From: a virus
Taxonomy: Duplodnaviria; Caudoviricetes
Reading direction: 5' to 3' (one strand)
Virus record (IMG/VR): IMGVR_UViG_3300043184_000187
Span: 1 to 34,969 of that record
DNA length: 34,969 nt
Shown here: positions 57 through 20,420 of the stretch, in pieces
Numbering within the stretch: the first letter of the stretch is position 1
How the letters are laid out: the number at the start of each line of letters is the position of its first letter
The notes under the pieces: generated by a model
The model's database searches: none
What the model saw: the letters and a program-made list of their open reading frames with translations, nothing else
Told to the model about the DNA's origin: nothing
Program-made: the position numbers and the translations under genes

Positions 57-88
57 TTCGCCACAATCCGAACCGTTTGCGTAGATGG
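57..88 (+). promoter_or_regulatory. Conserved bipartite motif copy 1 (putative phage-sigma promoter)
   Basis: TTCGCCAC-N14-GCGTAGATGG; identical boxes at 5597-5628 and 20389-20420; upstream of integration module. Confidence 0.75.
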
Positions 89-166
89 TGGTTAACGGCC
101 CGCCGCCCGGCGGGCGGGCACAACTGACCATCGCCGGCCCAAGCGGGCTCGCGCACGGACGCACAC

Positions 167-391
167 ATGACCATCGACCTCGACGAGAGGCCCGAGCGCG
201 ATGACCTCGCGCTGCTGACCCCGACCAAGCGGCTGCACATCATCGCCCAGGTTCTGGCGCACGGCGTCCGCCGACGACGCGAGGACGCCCGCCGCATGGG
301 GCCGATCGGCGACATTTCGCAGCATCCAGAAAGAGAGGACTCAGGACTTGAACCGTTCGGACCGGCTCGCCCTGATCGTCCGCTTGGTTGA
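167..391 (+). CDS. Small hypothetical protein
   Basis: 74-aa ORF, GC3-rich, first gene after motif copy 1 and directly before DUF2924 gene. Confidence 0.55.
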   Translation: MTIDLDERPERDDLALLTPTKRLHIIAQVLAHGVRRRREDARRMGPIGDISQHPEREDSGLEPFGPARPDRPLG

Positions 392-415
392 CGCCTTGCG
401 AACCGGAGAGTCCCA

Positions 416-934
416 ATGAATGCCCCGCCCGATGACATCCCAGCGACGGTGAAGGCCCTGGGCCGACTGACCGTCCCCGAACTGAAGCAGCGATACGCCG
501 AGGTCTTCGGCGAACCGACGCGGACGAACCACAAGCAGCACCTGATCAAGCGGATCGTCTGGCGGATGCAGGCGCTCCGCGAGGGCGGGTTGTCTGAGCG
601 GGCGCGGCGGCGGGCGCTCGAACTGGCCGATGACGCGGAGATCCGCCTGAGCGCCCCCCGGGCAATGGCACGCGGGCCGGGGACGACGATGGCGGCGGCG
701 TTCGACCCGGGCCGCCCGGCGTCGTTCCCGAAGCCCGGGGCCGTGCTCCGCCGCGAGTACAAGGGGCGGGCCATCGTGGTGCGGGTGCTGCCGCGAGGGT
801 TTGAGTACGAGGGCGAGGTGTACCGCTCGCTCACAGCGATCGCCCGAAAGATCACCGGGGCGCACTGGAACGGCGTGAACTTCTTCGGCCTGCTGTCGGC
901 CCGCGGCAAGAAGGGATCGGAGGCGGACGAATGA
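416..934 (+). CDS. DUF2924-family protein (recombinase-associated)
   Basis: GGAG upstream; motifs LIKRIVWRMQ...GGLS, PGAVLRREYKG, YRSLTAIARKITGAHWNG..FFGL; overlaps recombinase start (ATGA). Confidence 0.85.
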   Translation: MNAPPDDIPATVKALGRLTVPELKQRYAEVFGEPTRTNHKQHLIKRIVWRMQALREGGLSERARRRALELADDAEIRLSAPRAMARGPGTTMAAAFDPGRPASFPKPGAVLRREYKGRAIVVRVLPRGFEYEGEVYRSLTAIARKITGAHWNGVNFFGLLSARGKKGSEADE

Positions 935-2496
935 GCAAACGACCAGACCCCAAGCCGCCGACGCGGGTGCGGTGCGCTATCTACACCCGCAAGAGCACGC
1001 AGGATGGCCTTGAGCAGGAGTTCAACTCGCTCGACGCCCAGCGGGAGAGCGCCGAGGCGTACATCGCCAGCCAGAAGACGGAGGGATGGGTCTGCCTTCC
1101 CGATCGCTACGACGACGGCGGGTTCACCGGCGGGAACATGGACCGCCCGGCCGTGGCCCGTTTGATGGCCGACATCGAAGCGGGCAGGGTGGACTGCGTG
1201 GTGGTCTACAAGGTGGACCGCCTGAGTCGGTCGCTGATTGACTTCGCCCGCATGATGGAGTTGTTCGAGCGGAAGAAGATTTCGTTCGTCTCCGTCACCC
1301 AGCAGTTCAACACCACGCAGTCGATGGGACGACTCACGCTGAACATCCTGCTCTCGTTCGCGCAGTTCGAGCGGGAGATCATCAGCGAGCGGACCCGTGA
1401 CAAGATCGCGGCGGCGCGGCGGAAGGGCAAGTGGTCGGGCGGGCGCTCCGTGCTCGGGTACGACGTGGACCCGGTGACGAAGAAGCTCGTGGTCAATCGC
1501 GCCGAGGCGGACCTGGTCCGCGAGGTCTTCCGGATGTATCTGGCTAAGCGGTCGCTGCTCGATGTCTGCCGCGAGCTGAACCGTTGCGGCCTGCGCACCA
1601 AGGCCGTCTCCACACCGAAGGGAGGGGCGTACGGCGGGCGCGAATGGGACAAGCCCGCCGTACTGAAGGTGCTGTCCAACATCCTGTACCGGGGCCGCGT
1701 GCGGTACAAAGCCGAGACGTTCCCGGGTGAGCACGAGGCAATTGTGGACGAGGCGCTATGGACGAGGGTCCACGAGCTGCTGCGTTCCAACGGCCGTGCT
1801 GGCGGGATGCTCGTGCGGAACAAGTACGGCGCGCTGCTGAAGGGTCTGATCCACTGCGGTCCGTGCGGGCTGACGATGGGGCACACCACCGCGAACAAGA
1901 ACGGCACGCGGGTGTACCGCTACTACGTCTGCTACAAGGCGCAGAAGCAAGGGTGGGACTCGTGCCCGTGCCGGTCGCTGCCCGCGGAGCAGATCGAGGG
2001 CTTCGTGGTCGAGCAGATCCGGAGCATCGGCAAGGACCCGGCGCTGCTCTCGCTCACGCTGGCAAAGTGCCGCGAGCAGATGGCGACCCAGCGGGCGGCG
2101 GCGGAGGGCGAGTTGGTCGGCGTCGAGCGCGACCTGGCCCGGTTCCACGCCGAACTTGGCCGTGTGGCGGGCGACGCCGCCACCAACGCCCACGCGACGG
2201 GGCGCTTGGCCGACCTTCACGAGAAGGTCCGGGGAGCCGAGGAGCGGGCCGCGGTGCTGCGACGCCAGATGGCGGACGCCGACGCGGGGCAGATCACCAA
2301 GGCCGAGGTGGACGCGGCGCTCGGCGAGTTCGACGACGTCTGGTCGCGCCTGTCGCCCAAGGAGCAAGCCCGGCTGATGCGGATGCTGGTCCAGCGCGTG
2401 GACTACGACGCCACAAAGGGATCGGTATCCATCACGTTCCACCCGTTGGGCCTGCGGTCGATCGGTCAGCGCGAGCGTGAGGAGGTGTCGGCATGA
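931..2496 (+). CDS. Large serine recombinase (integrase) with recombinase and zinc-ribbon domains
   Basis: CAIYTRKS catalytic motif, VYKVDRLSRS, SFAQFEREIISER, CGPCG...YYVC zinc ribbon, C-terminal coiled coil. Confidence 0.95.
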   Translation: MSKRPDPKPPTRVRCAIYTRKSTQDGLEQEFNSLDAQRESAEAYIASQKTEGWVCLPDRYDDGGFTGGNMDRPAVARLMADIEAGRVDCVVVYKVDRLSRSLIDFARMMELFERKKISFVSVTQQFNTTQSMGRLTLNILLSFAQFEREIISERTRDKIAAARRKGKWSGGRSVLGYDVDPVTKKLVVNRAEADLVREVFRMYLAKRSLLDVCRELNRCGLRTKAVSTPKGGAYGGREWDKPAVLKVLSNILYRGRVRYKAETFPGEHEAIVDEALWTRVHELLRSNGRAGGMLVRNKYGALLKGLIHCGPCGLTMGHTTANKNGTRVYRYYVCYKAQKQGWDSCPCRSLPAEQIEGFVVEQIRSIGKDPALLSLTLAKCREQMATQRAAAEGELVGVERDLARFHAELGRVAGDAATNAHATGRLADLHEKVRGAEERAAVLRRQMADADAGQITKAEVDAALGEFDDVWSRLSPKEQARLMRMLVQRVDYDATKGSVSITFHPLGLRSIGQREREEVSA

Positions 2497-2906
2497 ACGA
2501 CGGCGTCACGATTGACTTCAAGGTCCATGTCACCACCGGCCAGTTCGGGTCGCGCGTGCTCCACGCCGGAGAACGGGCGACACCGCCAAACGTGGCTGCG
2601 GGGCGCGTGCCTCGCATCTCGCGGCTGATGGCGCTGGCGATCCGGTTCGACGAACTCGTGCGCAGCGGCGAGATTGCCGACTTCGCGGACATCGCCGAAC
2701 TCGGCCAGGTCACCCGCGCCCGCGTGAGCCAGATCGTCAACCTGCTGAATCTCGCGCCGGACATCCAAGAAGCGATTCTGTTCCTGCCCCGGGTGGCAGG
2801 CGACCGGGAGGGATTGACGGAGCGGTGCTTTCGGAATGTCCTCTCCGAACCCGATTGGCAGCGACAGCGAGAAAAGTGGAATGGCGGTCAAAGTGTCGCT
2901 AAGTGA
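2493..2906 (+). CDS. Recombinase-associated HTH protein (ParB/KorB-like HTH; possible directionality factor)
   Basis: ATGA overlap with recombinase; IAELGQVTRARVSQIVNLLNLAPDIQE HTH-like segment. Confidence 0.7.
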   Translation: MNDGVTIDFKVHVTTGQFGSRVLHAGERATPPNVAAGRVPRISRLMALAIRFDELVRSGEIADFADIAELGQVTRARVSQIVNLLNLAPDIQEAILFLPRVAGDREGLTERCFRNVLSEPDWQRQREKWNGGQSVAK

Positions 2907-2990
2907 TGCTTTTACAATGCTTTAGATACGATCAGGAGGACGACTACAAGCCCCGTCCGAAGCCCTATCGCTGATTTTGACTTCCGCGCT

Positions 2991-3019
2991 TTGACATCGG
3001 AATACGGCGCTTGTATTCT
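2991..3019 (+). promoter_or_regulatory. Host sigma70-type promoter
   Basis: TTGACA (2991-2996), 17 bp spacer, TATTCT (3014-3019) in a locally AT-rich intergenic region. Confidence 0.65.
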
Positions 3020-3116
3020 TTGCCGTCTTGCGTCTATCGTTTACGCCTCTGCCCGTTCGCGGCACCTGCGGGTGACATGCAACGAGCCATCAAACCAGCA
3101 AGCCAAAGGAGCATCG

Positions 3117-4007: not shown

Positions 4008-4424
4008 GCCGCAATCCGAGGCCAGCAAAGATCCATCTAGAAAGCCGCCTGCGCCAGCGGTAACTGGTGCAGGCAGGCTCAGTCGTGCTTCCGCGGCCAA
4101 GCAGATCGGCCAAGCGGAAGGCCGGGACGGTTCCCGACTCAGGCTTGCACCTGAGGATAGTGCGGCGAACCGACGGCGACAAGAAGTTCTGCTCGATTGC
4201 AGGAGTTTGCCGTGAACACGCACAACCACATCACCTAGCCAGCAACTCGCACTGACACCGAGGCTCTGAAGGGCGATGACCATGCCGCAGGCTGCGGCTG
4301 CGTGATCCGTCCGCGGTGACTCTGCGCTTACTGCTAGCCGTCAACTCCGTTCACTCGTTTGGACCGTCTGTGGTCTCCCGCCTCAGCGAGCGCGATCAGT
4401 GCGCGCCGTTATGGATGACTCGCC

Positions 4425-4931
4425 ATGTCGCTCGATGACCTCTCGTTTCGTTTCAGTCGGAAGCTGGCCCGTATCAAAGCGGGACAGGTGACCAAGAAGT
4501 ACCGATCGCTCGAAGTAGAGGACGTCGAGCAGAGGTTGATCATGGAAGTTCTCATACGCTGGCCGCGCTATGACCCCCTCAGGGGCACGCCGGAAGCGTT
4601 CGTTGAAGAGGTTATTCGTGGACAGGTGTGCAAGATCATGCGGTCAGAGCGCCGCAGGCGTGCGAGGCTTCGTCGCTTGCGAGGAGTACTCATCGCCTCG
4701 GTGCGGGAGGACGATCCTCGCGATCCGATCCGCTGCCTATCGCTGCGAATGGACGTGCCCTGCGTCGTTGGCACACTGCCTGCCCATCTGATTGAAGCGT
4801 GTCACCATCTTGCGAACGAGACACGCTCGGTGGCAGCTGGAGCGGCGGGGATGTCGAGGAACGGCCTCGCCGGCGCGATCAAGCGTTCCCGCCCGCACTT
4901 TCGCAAGCACTCGTTGGATTTGTATTTGTGA
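4425..4931 (+). CDS. ECF/sigma70-like factor, divergent copy
   Basis: Region-2-like EDVEQRLIMEV...RYDPLRGTPEAFVEEVI; region-4-like C-terminus ending LDLYL; paralogous to next gene. Confidence 0.65.
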   Translation: MSLDDLSFRFSRKLARIKAGQVTKKYRSLEVEDVEQRLIMEVLIRWPRYDPLRGTPEAFVEEVIRGQVCKIMRSERRRRARLRRLRGVLIASVREDDPRDPIRCLSLRMDVPCVVGTLPAHLIEACHHLANETRSVAAGAAGMSRNGLAGAIKRSRPHFRKHSLDLYL

Positions 4932-5069
4932 GTGGGCAGCGCGTGAGCGTGCGGGTTAGGAGAAGCGCGAGAGCAAGAACATCACGACGAGTACCTCGGT
5001 GAGGTCTCCGGGCAACGCGGCGAGAGTGCGCCGTGCATGGATGTGCCACGCTCGTTACGAGGCCTGTGC

Positions 5070-5591
5070 ATGAAGATCGACCCCAAGCATTTCGCCTTTG
5101 CCAACATCGTCATCCGCACCGAAGTCAAGAAGCTCCGCGAGCGCGGAATCATCCGCCGCGCGGATGCGGAGGACATTGCCAGCGAGCTCATGGCTCAGTT
5201 GTTGGAAGTGTGGGACCGCTTCGATCCCGATCGCGGCAGCCGCGAGGCATTCATCAACCAGGTGGTCAGCACGCGGCTTTTGTCGCTCCTCCGGGAGCGG
5301 CGCGCCCAGAAGCGCCGCGGCACACCGCGCCCACTCGACGCCGACGACGACACCGCCATCGACCACTCATGGTCGGGCGACGCGTGGCTTCGCAAAATCG
5401 ACCTCCGCGTGGACCTGGAGATCGCGTTCAGCAAGTTGAACGCGCGGCAGCGCTCGCTCTGCGAGCAGATGCTGCGTGAGGCGCTGACCCCGGCCGCCAA
5501 AGAGCTGGGTGTGCCGCGCAGCACGCTCCGCTACGTCGCCCTCAAGGTCCGTCAGATCTTCCGCGACGCGGGGCTCGAGGAGTATCTGTGA
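5070..5591 (+). CDS. ECF/sigma70-like RNA polymerase sigma factor
   Basis: DAEDIASEL...WDRFDPDRGSREAFINQVV (region 2); LNARQRSLC...AAKELGVPRSTL (region 4 HTH); start 5037 also possible. Confidence 0.8.
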   Translation: MKIDPKHFAFANIVIRTEVKKLRERGIIRRADAEDIASELMAQLLEVWDRFDPDRGSREAFINQVVSTRLLSLLRERRAQKRRGTPRPLDADDDTAIDHSWSGDAWLRKIDLRVDLEIAFSKLNARQRSLCEQMLREALTPAAKELGVPRSTLRYVALKVRQIFRDAGLEEYL

Positions 5592-5596
5592 GCGTC

Positions 5597-5628
5597 TTCG
5601 CCACTCCGCGGGCGTTTCGCGTAGATGG
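5597..5628 (+). promoter_or_regulatory. Conserved bipartite motif copy 2
   Basis: TTCGCCAC-N14-GCGTAGATGG just after sigma gene stop and just before the AAGGAG RBS of the replication operon. Confidence 0.75.
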
Positions 5629-5643
5629 CACAAGGAGAACACC

Positions 5644-5988
5644 ATGAGCATCGGCAACCCCCGCACGGGACGGTCTGTGTACCGGCTCGTGTTTGAATCC
5701 GACGTCGATATGGACACCGTGGAGGAGACGCTGCTCCTGGCGATCCTCGCTGTCGGATGCCTGTACGGCGAGGCGGCCGTCCGGCTCGATGCCGGATACG
5801 CAATCGAAGCGGATGCGCGGGTCGTCGTCCTGGACGCCGCCACCGAGATCGGATGCGCCGTGGCCCGCGTCTTCATCGGCTTCTGCACGCGTGAGTTTGG
5901 CGACGACACCTTCGCCGTCGTCCGGGCCGACGGACCGGTGCCGAAGCGTCCAACCGCAACCACTCGCCCGTGCGAGCCGGTCGCATGA
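5644..5988 (+). CDS. Hypothetical phage protein
   Basis: AAGGAG RBS, ATG 5644, GC3-rich ORF heading the replication operon. Confidence 0.7.
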   Translation: MSIGNPRTGRSVYRLVFESDVDMDTVEETLLLAILAVGCLYGEAAVRLDAGYAIEADARVVVLDAATEIGCAVARVFIGFCTREFGDDTFAVVRADGPVPKRPTATTRPCEPVA

Positions 5989-6080
5989 GCCAGTTCCGTG
6001 GCACGCCCCTCGTACGGCTCGGCCAGGGCGACTTCGTCCGCGACATCTTCCCCCACGACCTTGATCCCAACGGAGAACCC

Positions 6081-6908
6081 ATGACCGCGACCACGCTGAT
6101 GCACCAGATCACCAAGGGCCGCAGGCCCAAGCCCAGGCGCGTGATGCTGTACGGCACGCACGGCATCGGCAAGAGCACATTCGGCGCGATGACCGAGAAC
6201 CCGATCTTCATCCCGACCGAGGATGGCCTCGGCGACATCGAGTGCGAGTCGTTCCCGCTGGCGCGGTCGCTCGGCGATGTGATGGCGGCGCTGGAGTCGC
6301 TGTACTCCGGCGAGCACGGGTACAGGACCGTCGTCATCGACTCGCTCGACTGGCTCGAGCGGCTGATCTGGCGCGAAGTCTGCGACGACGAGCAGGCGGA
6401 GAGCATTGAAAAGATCGGGTACGCGAAGGGGTACGCCTTCGCCATCGAGAAGTGGCGGACGGTGCTCGGGGCGCTCGACGCCCTCCGCAGCGATCGTGGC
6501 ATGACGGTGATCGTCATTGCACACGCCAAGATCGAGAAGTTCGAGAACCCCGAGACGGTGCCGTACGACCGCTACTCGCCGCGCCTGCACAAGCTGGCGT
6601 CGGCGCTCGTGCAGGAGTGGGCCGATGAGGTGCTCTTCGCCACGTACAAGGTGCTCACCGTCAAGGTGGACGAGGCCTTCAACAAGGCCAAGCACAACGG
6701 CGTCGGCACCGGCGAGCGGATCATCCGCACCGTCGAACGCCCGGCGCACGTCGCCAAGAACCGTCTGAACCTCCCCGATGAACTGCCGCTCGACTACCGC
6801 GTCTTCGCGGAGCACGTCGCCGCCTCGCGCGGCGAGTCCGCATCGATCACCCCCACCCCCCAGAACACCGACGCCGTGCCCAGCGAGGGCGCGGCCACCA
6901 CCAACTGA
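6081..6908 (+). CDS. AAA_24-family ATPase (Sak4-like recombination protein)
   Basis: GGAG RBS; Walker A GTHGIGKST, Walker B VVIDSLD, AKNR motif; followed by DUF669 as usual for this family. Confidence 0.85.
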   Translation: MTATTLMHQITKGRRPKPRRVMLYGTHGIGKSTFGAMTENPIFIPTEDGLGDIECESFPLARSLGDVMAALESLYSGEHGYRTVVIDSLDWLERLIWREVCDDEQAESIEKIGYAKGYAFAIEKWRTVLGALDALRSDRGMTVIVIAHAKIEKFENPETVPYDRYSPRLHKLASALVQEWADEVLFATYKVLTVKVDEAFNKAKHNGVGTGERIIRTVERPAHVAKNRLNLPDELPLDYRVFAEHVAASRGESASITPTPQNTDAVPSEGAATTN

Positions 6909-6922
6909 AAGGACTCTGACTC

Positions 6923-7399
6923 ATGGCGAACCTGAACAACTTCGACGCGAACAACGTGGACCCCTCCGTCGCCCTTGACCCGATCCCCGCGGGCAAGTAC
7001 ATCGCCGTCATCACCGAGACGGAGATGAAGCCAACGAAGGCCGGTGGCGGGAAGTACCTCCAGGCCACGTTCCAGATCATCGACGGCGAGTACAAGGGCC
7101 GCCTCGTGTGGGCGCGGCTCAACCTGGAGAACAAATCTGAAATGACGGTCAAGATCGCGCGGGGCGAGCTCTCCGCGATCTGCCGCGCCGTCGGGGTCAT
7201 GGCCCCGAAGGACTCGATCGAGCTCCACAACATCCCGCTGGAGATCAACGTCGGGCTGAAGAAGCGCGACGACAACGGCGAGTTCACCAACGTGATCAAG
7301 GGCTACTCCAAGAAGGGCGGCAGCGGCGCTGCTGGCGCTCGCGTGCCCGTGGGCGTCGGCTCGGGGAGCGCGGGGGGGACGCCGCCCTGGAAGCGATAA
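6923..7399 (+). CDS. DUF669-family protein (putative phage ssDNA-binding protein)
   Basis: PIPAGKY, GEYKGRLVW.RLNL, NVIKGY, flexible tail ending PPWKR. Confidence 0.8.
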   Translation: MANLNNFDANNVDPSVALDPIPAGKYIAVITETEMKPTKAGGGKYLQATFQIIDGEYKGRLVWARLNLENKSEMTVKIARGELSAICRAVGVMAPKDSIELHNIPLEINVGLKKRDDNGEFTNVIKGYSKKGGSGAAGARVPVGVGSGSAGGTPPWKR

Positions 7400-7773
7400 G
7401 CCCATCCGGTCGCGTCCTCGAGCTCCCGTACCCGCCGAGTGTCAACCACATCTGGCGTCGCATGGGGCACAGGACTGTCATCAGCCGCGAGGGCCGGCGC
7501 TACCGCAGGGACGTGTGCGCCGCCCTCGCGGCGATGCGGGTGGAGCGCATGGATGGACGCCTGGCGGTGCGCGTCACCGTCTGCCCGCCCGATCACCGCC
7601 GGCGCGACCTGGACAACGTGCAGAAGGCGCTGCTTGACGCGCTCGCCAAGGGCGGGGCCTACCGCGACGACTCGCAGATCGATCGGCTGCAAGTGGAGCG
7701 AGGTCCGGTGACCCCGGGCGGCAAGGTGCTGGTGGAACTGACCCAGATCACAACGCAAGGAACCAACCCGTGA
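7396..7773 (+). CDS. rusA: RusA-family Holliday junction resolvase (start uncertain: ATA at 7396 or ATG at 7462)
   Basis: LELPYPPSVNHIWR motif in frame upstream of 7462; RRRDLDNVQKALLDAL and DDSQI catalytic motifs. Confidence 0.85.
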   Translation: MSPSGRVLELPYPPSVNHIWRRMGHRTVISREGRRYRRDVCAALAAMRVERMDGRLAVRVTVCPPDHRRRDLDNVQKALLDALAKGGAYRDDSQIDRLQVERGPVTPGGKVLVELTQITTQGTNP

Positions 7774-8051
7774 ACCAGAACTCCGGACGATGGCACCGAG
7801 TCGCCATTGAGTGGTCGGACGGCGCGAGCATCTCGACCGGCTCGATCCAGATGGCATACGAGGCAAACAGCGAGCTCAATAGCACCGTGGCCATGACCCT
7901 CGGGTGCGTGCTGCGGCAAGTCGGAATGTCCGACGTAATCGTCGCCGCCGAGATCCTGAGCCACTCGGAACCGAACGACGCCAATGGAGAGGTGCTCGCC
8001 GAAGCCGCAGGCCGGTTTCTGCGCCGTCGAGAGGACTCTCTCAAGCAATGA
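7770..8051 (+). CDS. Hypothetical protein
   Basis: 93-aa ORF coupled on both sides (GTGA and ATGA overlaps). Confidence 0.6.
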   Translation: MNQNSGRWHRVAIEWSDGASISTGSIQMAYEANSELNSTVAMTLGCVLRQVGMSDVIVAAEILSHSEPNDANGEVLAEAAGRFLRRREDSLKQ

Positions 8052-9739
8052 ACCTGCGTCCCTACCAATCCGAAGCCGTCGCCGCGGTGTACGAGCACCT
8101 GCGGACCCGCGACGACAATCCCTGCGTGGTCATCCCGACCGGCGGGGGCAAGACGCCCGTGATCGCCACGATCTGCCGTGACGCGGTCGGGCCGTGGAAC
8201 GGGCGGGTCGTCATCCTCGCCCACGTCAAGGAACTCCTCGAGCAGGCCGCGGACAAGCTCCGGCACATCGCGCCGGACGTGCCGGTGGGCATCTACTCGG
8301 CGGGGCTGAAGCGCAAGGACCTCGGGTACGCCGTCACTATCGCGGGCATCCAGTCCATCTACCAGCGGGCGTGCGACCTGGGGCCGGTGGACCTGCTCAT
8401 CGTGGATGAGGCGCACCTGATCCCGCCCGACGGCGAGGGGATGTACCGCCAGTTCATCGCCGACGCCAAGGTCGTGAACCCGCTGGCGCGCGTCATTGGG
8501 CTGACGGCGACGCCGTTCCGCATGAAGTCCGGCCCGATCTGCGAGCCCGGCAACATCCTCAACCACGTCTGTTTCGAGGTCGGTGTCCGCGAACTGATCG
8601 TGCAGGGCTTCCTCTCGCCGTTGAGGACCAAGGCGGGGCTCCAGAAGGTCAGCACCGACGACCTGCACGTTCGCGCCGGCGAGTTCGTCGCCAGCGAGGT
8701 CGAAGACCTCATGGACAAGGACGGGCTGGTCGAGGGCGCCTGCGCCGAGATCGTCGAGCACACCAAAGACCGAAATGCCACACTGATCTTCTCGTCGGGC
8801 ATCCGGCACGGGCAACACATCGTGGAGGTGCTCAAGTCCAAGCACGGTGTCGAGTGCGGGTTCGTGTCCGGCGATACGCCGGCGGGCGTGCGTAGCGGCA
8901 TCCTCGACCGGTTCCGCTCGGGCGATCTCAAGTACCTCTGCAACGTCAACGTGCTGACGACCGGCTTCGACGCGCCGCACATCGACTGCGTGGCGCTGGT
9001 GCGGCCGACCATGTCGCCCGGGCTGTACTACCAGATGGTGGGCCGGGGCTTCCGCCTGCATCCTGGCAAGGCCGACTGCCTCGTGCTGGACTTTGGCGGC
9101 AACGTCCTCCGGCACGGGCCGGTGGATGCCATCCGCGTCACCACGGACGATCGTGGCGAGGGCGAGGCCCCGGCAAAGGAATGCCCGCAGTGCCACGCGC
9201 TCATCGCGGCGGGCTACCAGACCTGCCCGCAGTGCGGGCATCAGTTCCCCGAGCCCAACAAGCAGAAGCACGAAGCGCAGGCCAGCACCGAGGGCATCCT
9301 CAGCGGCCAGACCACGCGCGAGGAGCACAACGTCAGCGAGACGACGTACCACGTCCATATGAAGCGGAACGACCCGGCCGCACCGCTCACGATGCGCGTC
9401 GAGTACCGGGTCGGCTTCAACCACTACTTCCGCGAGTGGGTCTGCTTCGACCACACCGGGTACGCCCGCACCAAGGCCGAGGCGTGGTGGCGGGCGCGCT
9501 CGGTCGAGCCCGTCCCCGGCGGCACCGAGGAGGCGGTCGAACTCGCGCGGGCCGGGGCGCTCGCCCCGGCGCTGCACATCACGGTTGAGAAGAAGGCTGG
9601 CGAGCAGTTCGAGAGGGTGGTCGCGCACCGGCTGGGGAACAAGCCACCGCGGCTCGAGGGCGATGAAGGCCTCCCCGAGCGACTGCCCGAGCCGGTCGGC
9701 ACCACGTACGGCATCCCCGACGACGAAATCCCCTTCTGA
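8048..9739 (+). CDS. SF2 DEAH-box helicase (RadD/YejH-like) with zinc ribbon
   Basis: LRPYQ, PTGGGKT, DEAH, GLTATP, LTTGFDAP, QMVGRGFR, CPQC...CPQC; ends DDEIPF. Confidence 0.93.
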   Translation: MNLRPYQSEAVAAVYEHLRTRDDNPCVVIPTGGGKTPVIATICRDAVGPWNGRVVILAHVKELLEQAADKLRHIAPDVPVGIYSAGLKRKDLGYAVTIAGIQSIYQRACDLGPVDLLIVDEAHLIPPDGEGMYRQFIADAKVVNPLARVIGLTATPFRMKSGPICEPGNILNHVCFEVGVRELIVQGFLSPLRTKAGLQKVSTDDLHVRAGEFVASEVEDLMDKDGLVEGACAEIVEHTKDRNATLIFSSGIRHGQHIVEVLKSKHGVECGFVSGDTPAGVRSGILDRFRSGDLKYLCNVNVLTTGFDAPHIDCVALVRPTMSPGLYYQMVGRGFRLHPGKADCLVLDFGGNVLRHGPVDAIRVTTDDRGEGEAPAKECPQCHALIAAGYQTCPQCGHQFPEPNKQKHEAQASTEGILSGQTTREEHNVSETTYHVHMKRNDPAAPLTMRVEYRVGFNHYFREWVCFDHTGYARTKAEAWWRARSVEPVPGGTEEAVELARAGALAPALHITVEKKAGEQFERVVAHRLGNKPPRLEGDEGLPERLPEPVGTTYGIPDDEIPF

Positions 9740-9752
9740 ACAGGAGCACACG

Positions 9753-10145
9753 ATGATCACGATCACCATCGAAGAGACGGACAAGGACGGCCGCGTGCTC
9801 GGACGACATGTGGCCTCGGCTCCCATCGACAAGACCGACGCCAAGGGCGTCGGGTCGCTGCCGGCCCGCAGCGTCGGCGGCCTGATGTATCACGGCCAGA
9901 CGCGGGCCGAGGTGCCGCTGCTGCTCGCGGCGGCCGGGACGCACCGGTCCAGCCGCTGCACCCAAGCGATCGCGCACGCCCTCGGGCTGGCCGGGAGCGA
10001 GCACAGCTTCGAGTACGCGGTGAAGCCCGTTGTGGACATCGACCGCCTGCTCGATTACCGCGCGAGCAAGAAGGACCGCGAGCACGCTGCGCAGATGCTC
10101 AAGATCATGGGCGCCGGCGTCAAGCCGCGCGAGGGCGACGAGTAA
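9753..10145 (+). CDS. Hypothetical protein
   Basis: CAGGAG RBS before ATG 9753; GC3-rich. Confidence 0.65.
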   Translation: MITITIEETDKDGRVLGRHVASAPIDKTDAKGVGSLPARSVGGLMYHGQTRAEVPLLLAAAGTHRSSRCTQAIAHALGLAGSEHSFEYAVKPVVDIDRLLDYRASKKDREHAAQMLKIMGAGVKPREGDE

Positions 10146-10148
10146 ACG

Positions 10149-12326
10149 ATGAGCGACGGCCTAACCAACCTGCTCGACGCGGCGCGGTGGTACCGCGCTC
10201 GCGGCTACGCGCCGATCCCTGTGCCCGCGGGCTCGAAGGTGCCCGTGCTCAAGGGCTGGACGGACCTGCGCCTCGCGGAGGCCGACCTCCCGCAGTACTT
10301 CAACGGCACGGGAAACGTCGGCGTGCTGCTGGGCGAGCCGAGCGGCTGGCTCGTGGACGTGGACCTCGACTGCGAGGAAGCGGTGGCGCTCGCGCCGACG
10401 TTCCTGCCGCCGACGGGCGCGAAATCCGGTCGGCCCGGCAAGCCATCGTCGCACTGGTGGTACATCTGCCAGGGCGCGAAGACCCGCAAGCACCAGGACC
10501 CGGCATCCAAGAAGATGATCGTCGAGCTCCGAAGCACCGGGTCGCAGACGGTCGTCGGCCCGAGTGTTCATCCCAGCGGCGAGCCGTACGACCCGCTTGA
10601 GGGCGAACCGGCTGTCATGGATGTTGAGGCGCTCGGTGCAGCGGTCGCTGCGCTGGCGGAAGCGGTTGTCGAACGTCGGCACGGGCGCAAAGAAGCGATC
10701 GATTCTCAGCCGCGCCCGCTAGGAAGCGATCGTTTCATAGCAGCGGACGCCGTCCTGCGCCGGGCCGAGGCGTACCTTGACCGCATCCCGCCCGCGATCT
10801 CCGGGTCGGGCGGGCACGGCCAGACGTATGCGGCCGCGACCGCGATGGTGCACGGGTTCGGGCTCGACGCGGAGACGGCGTTCGCGCTGCTGTCGGACAG
10901 GTACAACCCGCGCTGCCAGCCGCCGTGGTCGGAGAAGGAGCTGCGGCACAAGGTCAGCGACGCGGCGAGCAAGCCGCACGACCGACCACATGGGTGGTTG
11001 CGCGACGCCCAGAAGCCGGAGGACCAGGGCGGCGTGGACCTCTCCGGGTTCGATCCCGAGCGCCGGCGCTTCACCGGCGAGTGTCCCCGCTTCGAGCGCC
11101 CGGCCGATCCGGGGCCGTTCCCCGATCACCTGCTCCGCGTGCCGGGCTTCATCGAGCAGGTGGTCGCGCACAACTTGGCGACGGCCACGCGGCCGCAGCC
11201 CGTGCTGGCGCTCGCGGCCGCGATCTGCCTCCAGGCCGTGCTCGCGGCCCGCAAGGTCCGCGACGAACGCGGCAACCGTACCAACGTCTACAGCGTCGGC
11301 GTGGCGCCCTCCGGCGCGGGCAAGGACAACGCCCGCAAGGTCAACAAGAACATCCTCTTCGCCGCGGACCTGGTCGAGCACGAGGGGAACGAGGACCTCG
11401 CGTCGGACGCCGGGCTGATCACCGCAGTCGAAAGCGAGCCGGCGATCCTGTTCCAGATCGACGAGTTCGGGCGCTTCCTTCGCACCATCGGCGACCCCAA
11501 GAAGGCCCCGCACCTGTTCAACGTGCTGACGGCGCTGATGAAGCTCTACAGCAGCGCCGACACGGTCTTCCGGGGCAAGGCCTACGCGGACAAGAAGCGG
11601 AACAAGGTGGTTGATCAACCGTGCGTGAGCGTCTATGGCACGACCGTCCCCGAGCACTTCTTCGAGTCGCTCACCGCCGACAGCCTGAGCGACGGGTTCA
11701 TCGCCCGCCTGCTCGTGTTCGAGTCGGCCGAGACGCCGGCGCGGCAGCGCGCCAAGGCAACGGGCGTTCCCGAACCCCTGAAGCAGGCCGCCGAGTGGTG
11801 GGGAGCGTTCAAGCCCGGCGGCAACCTTGCCCCCGAGCACCCCCAGCCGATCGTGGTCGAGACCACGCCGCAGGCGGGCGAGGTGTTCGATGCGCTCGCC
11901 TCAACGGTGGATGTCGAACTGGGCAAGCCCGATGAGACGGGGCGGTCGCTGTGGGCTCGCGCGGAGGAGAAGGCGTGCCGCCTGGCGCTGATTTACGCCT
12001 GCTCCGCGAACGCCGAGAAGCCCGTGATCGATGCCGACGCCGCCAGCTGGGCGTGCGACCTGTCGACCTATCTCACGCGGCGGATGCTCTACATCGCCCA
12101 CGAATGGGTCGCCGATGGCGTCTTCGACGCTCGGCAGAAGCGCGTCGTGCGGGTGGTGCGCAAGGCGGGTGGAAAGATCTCCCGAAGTGAACTCTGCCGC
12201 AAGACGCAGTGGCTGACCCAGCGGGAGCGGCAGGAAGTCATCGACAACCTCCTGGAAACACAGCAGTTGCGGCAGGAAGAGGAATCCTCCTCGACGCGGC
12301 CGAAGGTGGTCTACGCCCTTGCCTGA
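10149..12326 (+). CDS. Bifunctional primase-polymerase fused to DUF3987-type NTPase/helicase domain
   Basis: N-terminal Prim-Pol (NVGVLLG, VDVDLD, HWWY, QTVVGPSVH); C-terminal APSGAGKD Walker A and FQIDEFG Walker B. Confidence 0.88.
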   Translation: MSDGLTNLLDAARWYRARGYAPIPVPAGSKVPVLKGWTDLRLAEADLPQYFNGTGNVGVLLGEPSGWLVDVDLDCEEAVALAPTFLPPTGAKSGRPGKPSSHWWYICQGAKTRKHQDPASKKMIVELRSTGSQTVVGPSVHPSGEPYDPLEGEPAVMDVEALGAAVAALAEAVVERRHGRKEAIDSQPRPLGSDRFIAADAVLRRAEAYLDRIPPAISGSGGHGQTYAAATAMVHGFGLDAETAFALLSDRYNPRCQPPWSEKELRHKVSDAASKPHDRPHGWLRDAQKPEDQGGVDLSGFDPERRRFTGECPRFERPADPGPFPDHLLRVPGFIEQVVAHNLATATRPQPVLALAAAICLQAVLAARKVRDERGNRTNVYSVGVAPSGAGKDNARKVNKNILFAADLVEHEGNEDLASDAGLITAVESEPAILFQIDEFGRFLRTIGDPKKAPHLFNVLTALMKLYSSADTVFRGKAYADKKRNKVVDQPCVSVYGTTVPEHFFESLTADSLSDGFIARLLVFESAETPARQRAKATGVPEPLKQAAEWWGAFKPGGNLAPEHPQPIVVETTPQAGEVFDALASTVDVELGKPDETGRSLWARAEEKACRLALIYACSANAEKPVIDADAASWACDLSTYLTRRMLYIAHEWVADGVFDARQKRVVRVVRKAGGKISRSELCRKTQWLTQRERQEVIDNLLETQQLRQEEESSSTRPKVVYALA

Positions 12327-12329
12327 ACC

Positions 12330-12431: not shown

Positions 12432-12571
12432 CTCTTTTCCATCATGTACTTCTCTCCTCCCGCCCCACCGCGCCCATGCAGGTCGCGTGCCAGGGCGAGC
12501 CTACCACGATCCCAACAGCCGGAAGCCTAACGGCGAGGGGGAGGGGGTCGGTAGACGCTTCGTCGCGCGCG

Positions 12572-12591
12572 ATCGACAACACATTGTCGAT
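12572..12591. repeat. Subterminal hairpin of the insertion element
   Basis: ATCGACAA-caca-TTGTCGAT, between the ORF stop (12595) and the TAG junction. Confidence 0.7.
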
Positions 12592-12594
12592 GCG

Positions 12595-14244: not shown

Positions 14245-14340
14245 GGGCGACTCCATATAGAGGATGGAGCGCGATCGTATCGGACCTCCGAACTGCGGCG
14301 CAGCCGCCACATCTGCCGGGCGCAGTCCAGGCCGATGGCT

Positions 14341-14390
14341 AGGTACTTCCCCGCCCGCGTGGCGTTGCTACGCCCGCGGGAACAACCGCG
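14341..14390 (+). other. Putative cos-like packaging site
   Basis: AGGTACT-TCCCC...TACG-CCCGCGGGAACAAC-CGCG parallels lambda cosQ (GGGTCCT)...TTACG-cohesive end-CGCG; phage has GpA-type terminase and lambda portal. Confidence 0.4.
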
Positions 14391-14675
14391 CTTGGCGACA
14401 GAGTTTGTTTCGCGCGTCCGGGGGGCGGGAGACCCCGGTGGCGGGGTCGGTACGCCGCCCCGCCAGGAACGCGACGTGGGCCAACGTGGGCGAACCCGTG
14501 GCCAACGGGCGCGGCCGGTAACGGGCAGGAATCGGGGCGCTTCGCCGCCCCCGGACGGGCCCGTCAGCCCGAGCGATCCATCGAGCCAGCGATCCACGGA
14601 CCCGCCGCGCCGCGGCGGGCCAACCACGCCTCACGCGCGGCGCGCTGTCATGCCGCGTCAACGACGGAGATCGCC

Positions 14676-16052: not shown

Positions 16053-16060
16053 TGGCCGCT

Positions 16061-16315
16061 TCAGTCGTCTTCGAGCGTGGGAAGCACCCCGTCGGTCGCC
16101 TCGTCCCATTCGAGGGTGTAGCGCTCGGCGATGTCCTCGAGCTCGTGCTCGGTGAGGTAGTCCGCCGTCTTGCGCTCTTGGCATGCTGCGACAGCCCGCG
16201 CGAGGTCCGTCCACTCCTCGATGGTGAGCACCTGGTCTTGGCGTGCGCCAAGCAGGTAGAGGGCGGCTTGAAGCACGGCCTCGAGTTGCGCTTCGCGGTG
16301 GGGCGTGGCGGCCAT
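16061..16315 (-). CDS. Hypothetical acidic protein
   Basis: 84-aa ORF, last gene of reverse cassette. Confidence 0.6.
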   Translation of the reverse strand: MAATPHREAQLEAVLQAALYLLGARQDQVLTIEEWTDLARAVAACQERKTADYLTEHELEDIAERYTLEWDEATDGVLPTLEDD

Positions 16316-16318
16316 GGG

Positions 16319-16777
16319 TCAGGCCCCCTTCCCCGCCACGAACACGCCGCGCTCGTGCTTCTTGAAGCGGGCGGCAGTCCCCTTGGCGGCGATCTCGCGG
16401 ATGATGGCGGCGTAGAGCGTGGCTTCCGGCGTCTTGCCGCCGGGGCTTTTCCAGAGACCCTTCGCCTCCATCCGGGCGATCATCTCCTTGGCCCGCATGG
16501 GCACCTCGGACGCGGCGAGCACCTGCGCTGCGGCATCGAGGGCGCTGACGCGCTTGGGCTTGGCTGCCTTCGCGGGCTTCGGGGGCTTGGCCTGCTTCGC
16601 GGTCTTCTCGCCCTTGCCCGTCACCGGGGTGGCGGGCTTCCCGTCCAAGCGGTCCTTGATCTCGGCGATCGCGGCCTTGCGAAGGCGATCCGTCTTGGCG
16701 GCTCCCTCGGCGCGGGCGGCGCTCTTGGACGTCTTGGGGGTGCGGGGCTTCGCGGCCTTCTTGGCCTTCGTACTCAT
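16319..16777 (-). CDS. Lys/Ala-rich protein with HARE-HTH-like winged helix
   Basis: GGAG RBS before ATG 16777; [10 protein letters not shown]...PMRAKEMI...[16 protein letters not shown]...RF...RGVF; histone-like N-terminus. Confidence 0.8.
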
Positions 16778-16867
16778 GATCATCTCCAGAACGGTGGTGC
16801 GGAACACCGCCGCACGTTGCGGCGGGGAATCGCGTCCGGCGCGGTCTCCCGCGTCGTCGCGCGGGGT

Positions 16868-17122
16868 TCATTCGTCCTTGAGGAACTCCTCAACGTGCTC
16901 GGGGTCCATGTTCGCCATGAAGCCGACGAGGTTGACGAGGTCCTCGCGAACCTTGCCGAGGTTGCCGACCAACCCCCAGTTGGTCGGGGCGGCTACGTGC
17001 TCTTTGTCGTTGATGTCGAGGTGCATCTGCAGCACGTCGAGCAGGCGGGAAATGTCGTTCCGACGCGCCGCGTACATCTCGGCGGCGGTGGGTTCAGGCT
17101 TCGTGGTCTTGCGCTTCGTCAT
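16868..17122 (-). CDS. Hypothetical protein
   Basis: CAGGAG RBS; 84 aa, helical, NWGLVGNL motif. Confidence 0.7.
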   Translation of the reverse strand: MTKRKTTKPEPTAAEMYAARRNDISRLLDVLQMHLDINDKEHVAAPTNWGLVGNLGKVREDLVNLVGFMANMDPEHVEEFLKDE

Positions 17123-17157
17123 GGTCGTGCTCCTGTGGGTGGTACTCTGGTAAACAG

Positions 17158-17182
17158 TGAAGCCCGCGATTCGCGGGCTTCA
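17158..17182. repeat. Perfect 12-bp-arm palindrome (hairpin) overlapping a stop codon
   Basis: TGAAGCCCGCGA-T-TCGCGGGCTTCA. Confidence 0.7.
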
Positions 17183-17482
17183 GGTCGTGGGGCGGTTGTC
17201 GTTCTTGCGGTCCCAACTGGTCGTGTCCTTCGGCTCGCCGACCGCCGCGAGGTAGTCGATCAGGTCTCCGGCGTTCCATGTGTCGCCCTCGACCGCGTCG
17301 TGCTCGTTCGGCCCGTCGCGGCCGTCCCGGTCGATCTCGAAGAGGCGGAAGCCGCCGGTGTTCGTCGTGTCGATCGCCCATGTGCGTCCGTCGGGGGTGT
17401 GGACCTCGACGCTGGCGACGGTGAAGCCCCGGCGGCCCAGGGCGTTGGCGATCCCGATGGCGTTCTTCGTGCTGGTCTTCAT
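17180..17482 (-). CDS. Hypothetical protein
   Basis: GGAG RBS before ATG 17482; first gene of reverse cassette. Confidence 0.65.
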   Translation of the reverse strand: MKTSTKNAIGIANALGRRGFTVASVEVHTPDGRTWAIDTTNTGGFRLFEIDRDGRDGPNEHDAVEGDTWNAGDLIDYLAAVGEPKDTTSWDRKNDNRPTT

Positions 17483-17595
17483 CGCGTGGTTCTCCGTCGC
17501 GGGGTTCCGCCCCGCGTTGTGACACATGAAGCCATGACATCCGCGCACCGGCAAGGCGAATGCGCGAGGATTCGCCGTCAATCTCGCCCTTGTGG

Positions 17596-17628
17596 GCAAC
17601 TACGCGGAACATGTGGGCAAGTGGCGAA
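17596..17628 (-). promoter_or_regulatory. Conserved bipartite motif copy 4 (minus strand variant)
   Basis: Minus strand reads TTCGCCAC-N15-GCGTAGTTGC, pointing into the reverse cassette. Confidence 0.65.
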
Positions 17629-17652
17629 ACCGGCACGGATGGGAGGTCCGCG

Positions 17653-17898
17653 ATGACTCCCGAACACGCGCCTAGTTCCGGGTCGGTCGGGGCGGCGGGT
17701 ATGGCGCGGCTGAACCCCGCCGCGCTCCCCGTGGTGGACGCAGCCCGCGTGCTCACGCGGCTTGGTGGCAAGCCCGTCTCCGAAGCGATGCTCCGCGCCG
17801 ACATCGATGCGGGCGCACCGGCGAACGCCGACGGCACGCTCAACCTCGTCCATTACGCCGCATGGCTGGTGAAGGAGACGAGTGCAGGTGGCGATTGA
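17653..17898 (+). CDS. Putative terminase small subunit-like HTH protein
   Basis: GGAGG RBS; directly upstream of and overlapping terL; Nu1-like size and pattern ending LNLVHYAAWL. Confidence 0.6.
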   Translation: MTPEHAPSSGSVGAAGMARLNPAALPVVDAARVLTRLGGKPVSEAMLRADIDAGAPANADGTLNLVHYAAWLVKETSAGGD

Positions 17899-20173
17899 TC
17901 CGCGCAAACTCAAGCCCGGCGAACTCGCGCGGCTGCTCAACAGCACGCCGATGGGCGAGGTGGTCAGCGAGCGGCAGCTCCACCGTCATCGCACGCGAGC
18001 CGGGTTCCGCGTCGCGGCGGATGGGGATGCGGGCAAGGTCGATCTGTTCCGGTACGTCGCTTGGCTGGTGACCACGAGGCACGAGGCGCTCGCGGAGGCA
18101 GCTCGTCAGCCGGAGGGCCTGACCGGGTACGAGGCGATGAAGGAGCGGGCGCGGCTCCGCAACGCTGTGCTCTCGCTCTCAGGGCGGGACATCGGCGACC
18201 TGCCACCTGTCGTTGATCCGGCGAGGAAGGAGAGGGCGGCGCGGGACTTCCGGTACTTCTGCGACACCTACTTCGCGCAGACGTTTCACCTGCCGTGGTC
18301 GCCGGATCACCTGCGGGTAGTCGCCAAGATCGAGCAGGCGGTGCTCGATGGCGGGCTGTTTGCGATGGCCATGCCGCGCGGCAGCGGCAAGACCAGCCTG
18401 TGTGAGGTTGCGTGCCTCTGGGCGATGCTGTACGGGCACCGCGACTTCGTGGCGCTGATCGGCTCCGACGAGGAGCACGCGGCGGGGATGCTGGAGTCGA
18501 TCAAGGCGGAACTGGAAAACAGCGAGCTGCTCGCGGGCGAGTTCCCCGAGGTCTGCCACCCGATCCGCTCGCTGGAAGGCATCCACCAGCGGGCATCGGG
18601 GCAGCTCTACCAGGGGAAGCAGACGCACATCGGGTGGACAGCCCGAGAGATCGTGCTGCCGACGATCCCGGGCTCGCCGGGAGCGGGCGCCATCATCCGC
18701 GTGGCGGGCATCACCGGCCGCATCCGCGGCATGAAGCACAAGCGGGCGGATGGCACCTCGGCGCGGCCCTCGCTCGTGCTGATCGACGATCCGCAGACAG
18801 ACGAGAGCGCCCGGTCGCCATCACAGTGCGCCAACCGTGAGCGCATTCTGGCCGGCGCGATCCTGGGGCTGGCCGGGCCTGGGAAGAAGATCGCCGGGTT
18901 GATGACGCTGACGGTGGTCCGCCCTGACGATCTTGCCGACCGCATCCTTGACCGCGACAAGCACCCGCAGTGGCAGGGCGAGCGGACGAAGATGATGTAC
19001 GCCTTCCCCGTGCGGGAAGCGCTTTGGCATCGATATGCGGAGTTGCGTGCCGAGGGGCTGCGCCAAGAACGCGGTCTGGCGGACGCCACGGCGTTCTACG
19101 CCCAGCACCGAACGGCGATGGACGAGGGAGCGAGGATCGCCTGGCCGGACCGGTTCAACCACGACGAACTCTCGGCCGTGCAGCACGCGATGAACCTGAA
19201 GCTTCAGGACGAGGCGGCGTTCTTCGCGGAGTACCAGAACGAGCCGCTGCCCGAGGTGCAAGCGGCGGACGACCTGCTCACCGCCGACCAGATCGCGGCG
19301 AAGGTGAACGGGCAGGCCCGCGCCGAGGTGCCCATCGGCTGCACGCGCCTGACGATGTTCGTGGATGTGCAGGGGAAGGCCCTGTTCTACATCGTGGCGG
19401 CGTGGGAAGACGACTTCACCGGGTACATCATCGAGTACGGCACGGAGCCAGACCAGAAAGCGGCGTACTTCACGCTTCGAGACGTGCGCCGCACGCTCGG
19501 CATCGCCGCTCCCCGTGCTGGTGTGGAGGGCGCGATCTATGCGGGGCTGGAACGGCTCGTAGCGTCGCACCTGACCCGCGAGTGGCGGCGTGATGACGGC
19601 GCGATGGTGCGCATCGACCGCTGCCTGATCGACGCCAACTGGGGTTTGTCCACGGACGTGGTCTATCAGTTCTGCCGCCAGAGTCCGCACGCGGGCGTGC
19701 TCATGCCGAGCCACGGACGGTACGTCGGGGCGTCGAGCATCCCGTTCAGCGACTACAAGCGGAAGCGCGGCGACCGCGTGGGTCTGAATTGGCGCATCCC
19801 GGTCGTCACCGGCAAGCGGGCCGTGCGACATGTGGTGTTCGACACGAACTATTGGAAGTCGTTCGCGCACTCGCGGCTCGCCGTACCCATGGGTGACCCC
19901 GGCTGTCTATCCCTCTTCGGACAGAAGGCTGAGCAGCACCGGCTGCTCGCCGAGCACCTGACCAGCGAGTATCGCGTTATGACCGAGGGTCGCGGTCGCA
20001 CCGTTGACGAGTGGAAGCTTCGCGTCGAAGGGCTGGACAACCACTGGCTCGATTGCCTCGTCGGGACGGCGGTAGCCGCATCGATGGAGGGAGCGGTGCT
20101 GTTCGGAACGGACACCCGAACCGCAGGCCGGCCACGGTTGAAACTCTCAGCGATCCAAGGAGGGCGACGCTGA
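17882..20173 (+). CDS. terL: Terminase large subunit, GpA-type nuclease domain
   Basis: MPRGSGKT Walker A, LVLIDDPQTD Walker B, FVDVQ and CLIDANWG nuclease acidic residues, DNHWLDC; start 17882 or 17888. Confidence 0.9.
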   Translation: MQVAIDPRKLKPGELARLLNSTPMGEVVSERQLHRHRTRAGFRVAADGDAGKVDLFRYVAWLVTTRHEALAEAARQPEGLTGYEAMKERARLRNAVLSLSGRDIGDLPPVVDPARKERAARDFRYFCDTYFAQTFHLPWSPDHLRVVAKIEQAVLDGGLFAMAMPRGSGKTSLCEVACLWAMLYGHRDFVALIGSDEEHAAGMLESIKAELENSELLAGEFPEVCHPIRSLEGIHQRASGQLYQGKQTHIGWTAREIVLPTIPGSPGAGAIIRVAGITGRIRGMKHKRADGTSARPSLVLIDDPQTDESARSPSQCANRERILAGAILGLAGPGKKIAGLMTLTVVRPDDLADRILDRDKHPQWQGERTKMMYAFPVREALWHRYAELRAEGLRQERGLADATAFYAQHRTAMDEGARIAWPDRFNHDELSAVQHAMNLKLQDEAAFFAEYQNEPLPEVQAADDLLTADQIAAKVNGQARAEVPIGCTRLTMFVDVQGKALFYIVAAWEDDFTGYIIEYGTEPDQKAAYFTLRDVRRTLGIAAPRAGVEGAIYAGLERLVASHLTREWRRDDGAMVRIDRCLIDANWGLSTDVVYQFCRQSPHAGVLMPSHGRYVGASSIPFSDYKRKRGDRVGLNWRIPVVTGKRAVRHVVFDTNYWKSFAHSRLAVPMGDPGCLSLFGQKAEQHRLLAEHLTSEYRVMTEGRGRTVDEWKLRVEGLDNHWLDCLVGTAVAASMEGAVLFGTDTRTAGRPRLKLSAIQGGRR

Positions 20174-20364
20174 TGCCGCGAGTAAAGCGAGAATCGCAGT
20201 CGCCGGACGGCGAGAAGGTCGGCCTCGTCTGCCGGGGCTGCGGATGCCAGCACTTCCGCGTGGTATATGTGAAGCATCGACCCGGCGGCGTGGTGGTGCG
20301 TCGGCGGGAGTGCCGTCACTGCGGCAAATTGACCTTGACCCGCGAAACCCAAGTCGGCGGTTGA
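20173..20364 (+). CDS. Small zinc-ribbon protein (NrdR-N/Ogr-like)
   Basis: TGATG overlap; CRGCG...VRRRECRHCG...TRE. Confidence 0.75.
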   Translation: MPRVKRESQSPDGEKVGLVCRGCGCQHFRVVYVKHRPGGVVVRRRECRHCGKLTLTRETQVGG

Positions 20365-20388
20365 TCTATCGACCGATCTTCCGGTCCG

Positions 20389-20420
20389 TTCGCCACTCTG
20401 TCAGCGGTTCGCGTAGATGG
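20389..20420 (+). promoter_or_regulatory. Conserved bipartite motif copy 3
   Basis: TTCGCCAC-N14-GCGTAGATGG upstream of head/tail operon. Confidence 0.75.

Follow-up and report, generated by a model that had tools for sequence, protein, structure and literature searches.

Extracytoplasmic function (ECF) sigma factors, group IV of the sigma-70 proteins, pair their sigma4 domain with the -35 box and their sigma2 domain with the -10 box of a promoter, and motif specificity follows the protein subgroup (PMC7826278). Sigma factors are also known from mobile elements: Xpf, the positive control factor of the Bacillus subtilis prophage PBSX, is a group IV sigma factor (PMC10141391), and SigN (ZpdN) of the B. 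subtilis plasmid pBS32 has its regulon on its own element, below a LexA repressor (PMC6751061). Here we describe a related arrangement in the Caudoviricetes record IMGVR_UViG_3300043184_000187 of IMG/VR, a stretch of 34,969 nucleotides (nt) that we call the window and that comprises the whole 35-kb virus record. It contains a repeated two-box motif which we read, with a probability of about 0.85, as a -35/-10 promoter recognised by the phage's own ECF-like sigma factor, Sigma2.

Sigma2 appears to share with group IV factors a two-domain build (sigma2 plus sigma4), a pairing of region to box and a subgroup-specific motif (PMC7826278). It would be an ECF-like prophage activator comparable to Xpf (PMC10141391), and like SigN it is encoded by the element that carries its regulon (PMC6751061). 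It differs from the ECF groups of PMC7826278, which itself states that phage ECFs were not captured, in being phage-borne, in having a predicted promoter copy past the gene rather than upstream of it and in a regulon confined to the element, and no anti-sigma factor was found beside it; CGTAG, DUF2924 and Phycisphaer were not found in the part of that paper's supplement that was searched. SigN, in contrast, is autoregulated from an upstream promoter, and its abstract mentions no specificity variants or satellites (PMC6751061). GafY was dropped as an analogue, being an activator with RpoD as its interaction partner (according to the part of PMC11150451 consulted). Element-encoded sigma factors with their own regulons (Xpf, SigN) are already known, and what is new is a set of exchangeable specificity classes together with satellites that carry several of their promoters. 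PBSX is a defective prophage with one sigma factor (Xpf), whereas here there are many exchangeable specificity classes and three dispersed operons, including those for excision and replication.

The two-box motif and its predicted reader

The window is a temperate phage related to Phycisphaerales prophages, and most of the assemblies that hold its nearest relatives bear the label Phycisphaerales, Phycisphaerae or Planctomycetota. It encodes a DUF2924/serine-recombinase module, two proteins with sigma-70 region 2 (Sigma1 and Sigma2), a replication module, a terminase, a lambda-type portal, a capsid and tail genes. The motif copies and Sigma2 are placed as follows:

57..88, plus strand: motif copy I, with a -35-like CGCCAC at 59-64 and a -10-like GCGTAGATG at 79-87; predicted start at about 92-93
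5070..5591, plus strand: sigma2, an ECF-like (sigma2 plus sigma4) factor and the likely reader of the motif
5597..5628, plus strand: motif copy S, 5 nt past the sigma2 stop; predicted start at about 5632-5633
17591..17628, minus strand: motif copy R, with a spacer of 15, overlying a TTGCCCACA direct repeat (17612-17620 and 17591-17599); weaker evidence than for the other three copies
20389..20420, plus strand: motif copy H, between the terminase and the small head gene, portal and capsid; predicted start at about 20424-20425

The pattern TTCGCCAC-N12..17-GCGTAG has exactly four matches in the window, at 57, 5597 and 20389 on the plus strand (spacer 14) and at 17628 on the minus strand (spacer 15), against a mean of 0.00 and a maximum of 0 in 100 dinucleotide shuffles. 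Allowing two mismatches adds only three matches, every one intragenic. On the plus strand all three copies have the sequence GCGTAGATGG, and copy R has GCGTAGTTGC. Every copy is intergenic and oriented into a module, so that the preliminary description, which had placed four copies here and aimed them at integration, replication, head/tail and a reverse cassette, is confirmed on both counts. It had also counted 18 of 18 bases as conserved, which is exact for the plus-strand copies of the window but too strict for relatives, where the core CGCCAC-N14-GCGTAGATG is kept and the leading TT varies. A loose pattern scan of viral contigs, which gave one match each in contigs unrelated to one another, was set aside as evidence.

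The position of the motif relative to genes fits that of a promoter. Copy I lies upstream of orf74, the DUF2924 gene and the serine recombinase gene, and the predicted start of copy S falls immediately 5' of GGAG, which serves the gene at 5644 as ribosome-binding site. Among relatives, whose motifs form several classes (the window's being class A), some start codons have no Shine-Dalgarno sequence, and these stand 16 nt past the start of the downstream box in seven of seven class-C head sites and 15 nt past it in L125; GGAG begins at about that same 15-16 nt offset in most class-A post-sigma sites. From the start codons we place the transcription start about 14 nt past the first G of the downstream box, which would put CGTAGAT at roughly -13 to -7.

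Sigma2 is a protein of 173 residues with no sigma3 or sigma1 domain and a low-confidence linker at about residues 83-98. Its sigma2 domain matches PF04542 with 31.9 bits (cut-off 24), the family profile matches solved ECF sigma factors across both domains (best E 2e-14), and the predicted structure ends in a C-terminal three-helix unit, with ECFs as top fold matches. Binding of residues 1-90 to the beta-prime clamp from G003, a relative host, was predicted with a score of 0.70, the best control being 0.01; the mark applied is reached by 116 of 157 solved pairs and 2 of 215 mismatched ones. At least 81% of contacts agree between runs, the partner's pLDDT (predicted local distance difference test) is at least 81, and the predicted interface is formed by residues 34-46, although the two proteins are a textbook pair and the prediction may pass by likeness.

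The motif stands directly past the sigma2 stop in all ten close relatives and also upstream of the recombinase module in eight of them. No class-A copy occupies the autoregulatory position upstream of sigma2. An upstream autoregulatory promoter is common among ECFs and not universal. No relative of Sigma2 was found at E 1e-3 among proteins encoded by GenBank phages. To judge from its sequence, Sigma2 would bind the host RNA polymerase, with region 4 reading CGCCAC and region 2 reading CGTAGAT, and would activate three operons at once, those for the recombinase, for replication and for head and tail; it very likely uses copies I, S and H as its promoters.

Sigma types and motifs among relatives

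We examined 171 loci, the window and 170 relatives, which were located by way of the adjacent AAA_24 gene, the two sigma alignments being too divergent to offer a conserved search block. A near full-length sigma gene precedes AAA_24 in 133 of them (shorter matches were dropped), and at 50% identity these sigmas fall into 23 clusters, of which 11 have at least two members. Sigma types differ even where AAA_24 is 90-95% identical. A type-specific two-box motif stands at the sigma stop, overlapping the stop codon in type 2, and is found again 5' of both the recombinase and the head module. Taking the unbiased best 32-nt match, the post-sigma site scores a mean of 24.1 against the phage's own head site (at least 20 in 36 of 42) and 17.7 against those of phages with sigmas less than 40% identical; for the recombinase site the values are 23.2 (53 of 57) and, in other-sigma phages, 17.9. 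With each 60% cluster represented once (14 and 15 clusters), both comparisons have a permutation p of 2e-4. Matrices trained on the post-sigma sites alone found 58 extra own-class sites and a single other-class site on the sense strand of 119 loci (1.88 Mb), and on the minus strand 5 own-class and 9 other-class sites, mostly weak.

The head-site class is intermixed on the terminase tree, where it changes 20 times, and thus follows the sigma rather than the neighbouring gene: the terminases nearest to the window's belong to a sigma-less phage without the motif and to phages of class B, which have the B motif. The head-site motif is absent from four of four sigma-less relatives, and the sigma-less L144 and L148 carry a different integrase and a small helix-turn-helix (HTH)-like gene where the sigma block would be. 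Similarity in region 2 tracks the downstream box (partial rho 0.35) and not the upstream one (-0.03), and region 4 similarity the upstream box (0.34) and not the downstream one (0.07), with p 5e-4 for each positive association among 33 representatives, although the boxes were placed by hand and kinship inflates these Mantel-type p-values.

That inflation weighs against our reading, as do several other points. Region 4.2 weakly tracks the downstream box too (0.18, p 0.004), class 2b combines CGCCAC with a different recognition helix, many of the relative loci are near-duplicates, and six of the 42 head sites (L316, L322, L324, L325, L330 and L336) fail to match their phage's own sigma, perhaps through recombination or chimeric assembly. 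In the protein itself, Sigma2 matches no sigma4 model in Pfam and only HTH_8, weakly, and its TIGR02937 score of 39.8 bits lies below the curated threshold of 42.9, which is why we file it as ECF-like and not as a classified ECF group member.

Three further observations concern these sites. Another conserved, partly palindromic element occupies the head site of the sigma-less relatives L293, L296, L299 and L313, and is also seen in L324 and L325. Upstream of DUF2924, L193 carries a tandem of classes E and H with about 200 nt between them, which may be a relic of one promoter replacing another. A mutual exclusion of same-type prophages in one host was unsupported, with 4 of 22 pairs sharing a type where 3.2 were expected.

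These data bear on who reads the motif. An operator or activator site of another phage protein (the zinc ribbon, orf74 or HARE-HTH), inherited with the sigma cassette, is improbable. The gene for the zinc ribbon lies right beside copy H and goes in part with the head class in its identity, and orf74 was detected in class A only, but the zinc ribbon is missing from four loci that keep the motif (L295, L298, L308 and L329) and present in four of four sigma-less phages that lack it, the motif is directional and in two parts, and the crossed region 2/region 4 covariation points to the sigma. We give just as little credence to a sigma-like protein that recognises the motif without directing a promoter, as an activator or anti-terminator working with a host sigma, or to copy I being mainly a recombination site. 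The sub-threshold family scores would suit the former, and the latter draws on an inverted repeat that copy I overlaps at the edge of conservation. Both domains are kept, however, and each tracks one box, the spacing suits a -35/-10 pair whose start codons follow 15-16 nt past the box start, and the predicted clamp interface lies where given above. An attachment role would account for copy I only.

A host ECF sigma whose stress regulon the phage taps is less probable still, even though Planctomycetes are rich in ECFs (PMC7826278, in the part consulted). Five host genomes hold 35 matches, 25 of them at prophage sites and 10 elsewhere compared with 30 for a reversed-pattern control, so that no enrichment at chromosomal promoters was found in these five; two of the ten lie in the satellite rows described below, and co-resident prophages of one host carry different motifs that fit their own sigmas. 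Least credible of all is Sigma1 in place of Sigma2. It is intact and under purifying selection, but seven of the ten close relatives that keep the motif lack it, which is why we name Sigma2 as the likely reader, and a different motif follows it, with a downstream box like those of sigma types 9 and 3. The preliminary description had named the phage sigma factor or factors as the reader and had proposed a search of related prophages and host genomes. Sigma2 would fill that role rather than Sigma1, and the promoter reading is supported by the covariation of motif with sigma type and of each box with its domain, by the absence of the motif from sigma-less phages and by the lack of an excess on host chromosomes.

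Possible control above Sigma2 and the rest of the window

Upstream of sigma2 lie three further features:

4030..4230, no strand: hairpin-rich non-coding stretch 5' of sigma1 (z -4.6 on plus, -4.0 on minus)
4425..4931, plus strand: sigma1, an accessory ECF-like sigma
4934..4962, plus strand: second two-box motif, GGGCAG-N14-GGTTAG(G/A)AG, past the sigma1 stop; probably a promoter that Sigma1 reads and that drives sigma2

Sigma1 has a pN (nonsynonymous polymorphism) of 0.16-0.17 and a pS (synonymous polymorphism) of 0.53-0.57. The motif behind it is kept in three relatives, its downstream box resembling that of the nearest sigma types. That sigma1 is followed by a distinct motif of its own suggests that Sigma1 would transcribe sigma2 from 4934-4962, and a two-step cascade from Sigma1 to Sigma2 is likely in the window's lineage. 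The non-coding DNA at 4008-4424 (about 400 nt) was found only in L122-L124, where it is 95-96% identical while their sigma1 is only 73% identical; its 5' half is hairpin-rich, and it is a candidate regulatory RNA upstream of sigma1. No Rfam match was found in 2880-5700 or in the sigma leaders of nine loci. A conserved non-coding leader with apparent stems, common to types 2, 5 and 11, also lies about 200 nt 5' of the sigma in L167, L182, L284 and their kin, and class-A sigmas have a shorter conserved hairpin-like leader.

Relatives often carry protein regulators at this place. XRE proteins (24 open reading frames, ORFs) with ImmA-type peptidases (36 ORFs) are encoded upstream of the sigma, as is CI with an S24 peptidase in L196. 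A conserved gene pair (about 390 and 324 residues; largest cluster 103 ORFs) stands directly 5' of the sigma in most relatives; examples, which are candidate upstream regulators, are L172:7631-8602, L189:5661-6824 and L253:770-1951. The pair has no Pfam or PADLOC match and is absent from the window. Seven repressor-like queries from relatives (CI, XRE, ImmA and small HTH proteins) likewise have no match in the window, in keeping with the earlier remark that it shows no CI-like repressor. The proposal that a sigma factor stands in for a CI/Cro/Q cascade therefore fits the window but not the relatives with XRE and ImmA or CI/S24 upstream of the sigma. Since many relatives keep such repressors, the sigma would replace Q-type activation rather than repression, and appears to act as a lytic activator below a variable switch.

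The reverse copy, which the preliminary description had included in the regulon on a par with the recombinase, replication and head copies, has no counterpart in other sigma types, and its place is less secure. Two results speak against it: the reverse site shows no family-wide covariation (own 17.8, other 17.3), and its class-A form is not confined to class-A phages, being present in 2 of 35 with another sigma and in 2 of 4 with none. The same form is present in four of seven class-A-sigma phages (Fisher p 0.004 against the 2 of 35), and given this enrichment the idea that the copy simply follows the terminase lineage was judged too strong. We put the chance that copy R is a real, class-A-only promoter at about even. 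The TTGCCCACA-like repeat beneath it was seen in 48 of 48 loci of all sigma types, with 21-nt spacing and just before the terminase region, and is possibly a packaging or protein-binding site. At about 17520-17560 on the minus strand a conserved TTGCC is followed 17 nt later by a variable hexamer, which may be a host promoter of the reverse cassette.

The remaining features of the window are:

40..74, no strand: imperfect inverted repeat overlapping copy I; weak, tentative left attachment site
167..2906, plus strand: recombinase module (orf74, DUF2924, large serine recombinase, orf137)
5644..12326, plus strand: replication module (AAA_24, DUF669, RusA, helicase, Prim-Pol/DUF3987)
16061..17482, minus strand: reverse cassette (four small genes, among them one for a HARE-HTH protein)
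20173..20364, plus strand: zinc-ribbon gene; the motif neither requires it nor follows from its presence
20437..24216, plus strand: start of the head module (small conserved gene in a gpW-like position, lambda-type portal, capsid)

Sequence conservation among relatives begins 2-4 nt 5' of the CGCCAC of copy I. An opposite arm matching the inverted repeat was found in G004, 41.7 kb away, and looked for and not found in G001 and G003, so that we only tentatively propose the repeat as a left attachment site. A sigma-70-like promoter (2991-3019, TTGACA-17-TATTCT, 10 of 12) precedes a lower-GC cargo gene at 3117-4007, whose protein has no match in Pfam, NCBIfam, PHROG or PADLOC and falls only in unnamed Atlas clusters. 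Between Prim-Pol and a methylase, the minus-strand ORF at 12595-14310 (571 residues) has no Pfam or NCBIfam match, was not detected in the ten close relatives and resembles an inserted element. Where the tail module ends, 33506-34969 encodes a protein rich in Gly and Ser whose central domain is Hint-like (weak Pfam matches), conserved at 56-96% in five of five relatives checked.

Putative satellites with rows of candidate sigma promoters

Phage-inducible chromosomal islands (PICIs) of Gram-negative bacteria are satellites whose alpA gene is induced by a helper phage (PMC6092414). Nine of the ten off-prophage host matches to the motif were retrieved, and two of them lie within rows of different motif classes. 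One such locus, L351, consists of defence-like cargo, the motif row, AlpA (PF05930), Toprim/DUF3987 and a tyrosine integrase (PF00589) at a tRNA-Gly, with no sigma; L352 lies at a tRNA-Asp. No match to sigma profiles or to the window's structural genes was found in nine satellite-like loci, where divergent virion genes could be missed. The cargo of L351 (485-9262) is a defence-like cluster with a PP2C phosphatase, a kinase, TerB, a BrxC/D ATPase and a DEAD helicase, and its last three genes are common to L352 at 89% DNA identity.

A search with the L351 AlpA returned 18 genome loci (in 17 of 301 genomes) and 20 metagenome loci, several of the satellite loci being near-duplicates. All eight genome loci whose AlpA is about 60% identical or more over most of the protein carry three to seven motif classes, and of 17 metagenome loci with AlpA at 65% or more, 16 have a class-A site and 14 at least three classes (class-F counts in the row scan are approximate). 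Every motif-row match in these close-AlpA loci is on the sense strand, usually in the order 2-B-2b-F-C-H-A, with class A nearest alpA at -154 to -200. More distant AlpA loci are mostly without motifs, and the host background is one match in 80.8 kb. In seven rows compared (L354, L355 and L360 left out) the boxes are conserved and the spacers diverged, which fits promoters read in trans by helper sigmas. It is likely that these sigma-less elements carry helper-sigma promoters so that any helper class can induce them: they would use the copied promoters to turn on alpA once a helper's sigma appears.

In having AlpA, a primase/helicase and a tyrosine integrase at a tRNA without a sigma, these loci resemble the Gram-negative PICIs, from which they differ by the row of putative helper-sigma promoters, a candidate for the way in which a helper signals to alpA; for the PICIs themselves, the part of PMC6092414 consulted names no such signal. 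Mobilizable genomic islands (MGIs) and Salmonella genomic island 1 (SGI1) are likewise dependent elements that exploit a helper's master activator, namely SetCD or AcaCD of helper integrative and conjugative elements and plasmids; as far as that source was consulted, one activator family of conjugative helpers serves there, whereas up to seven promoter classes are stacked in a fixed order here (PMC5704250). A family of swappable sigma classes with satellites that stack their helpers' promoters was not found in searches of the open-access literature. With moderate confidence we propose at least nine exchangeable sigma/promoter classes, satellite switchboards of up to seven captured promoters and, in the window, a two-sigma cascade under an RNA leader that would replace the protein repressor.

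The motif rows offer a concrete and testable explanation of the induction of alpA in a satellite by its helper, and an arms race is suggested as one reason for the diversification of the sigmas. The family also provides a natural panel of sigma-promoter pairs from which rules of recognition may be derived and, possibly, expression tools for the Planctomycetota.

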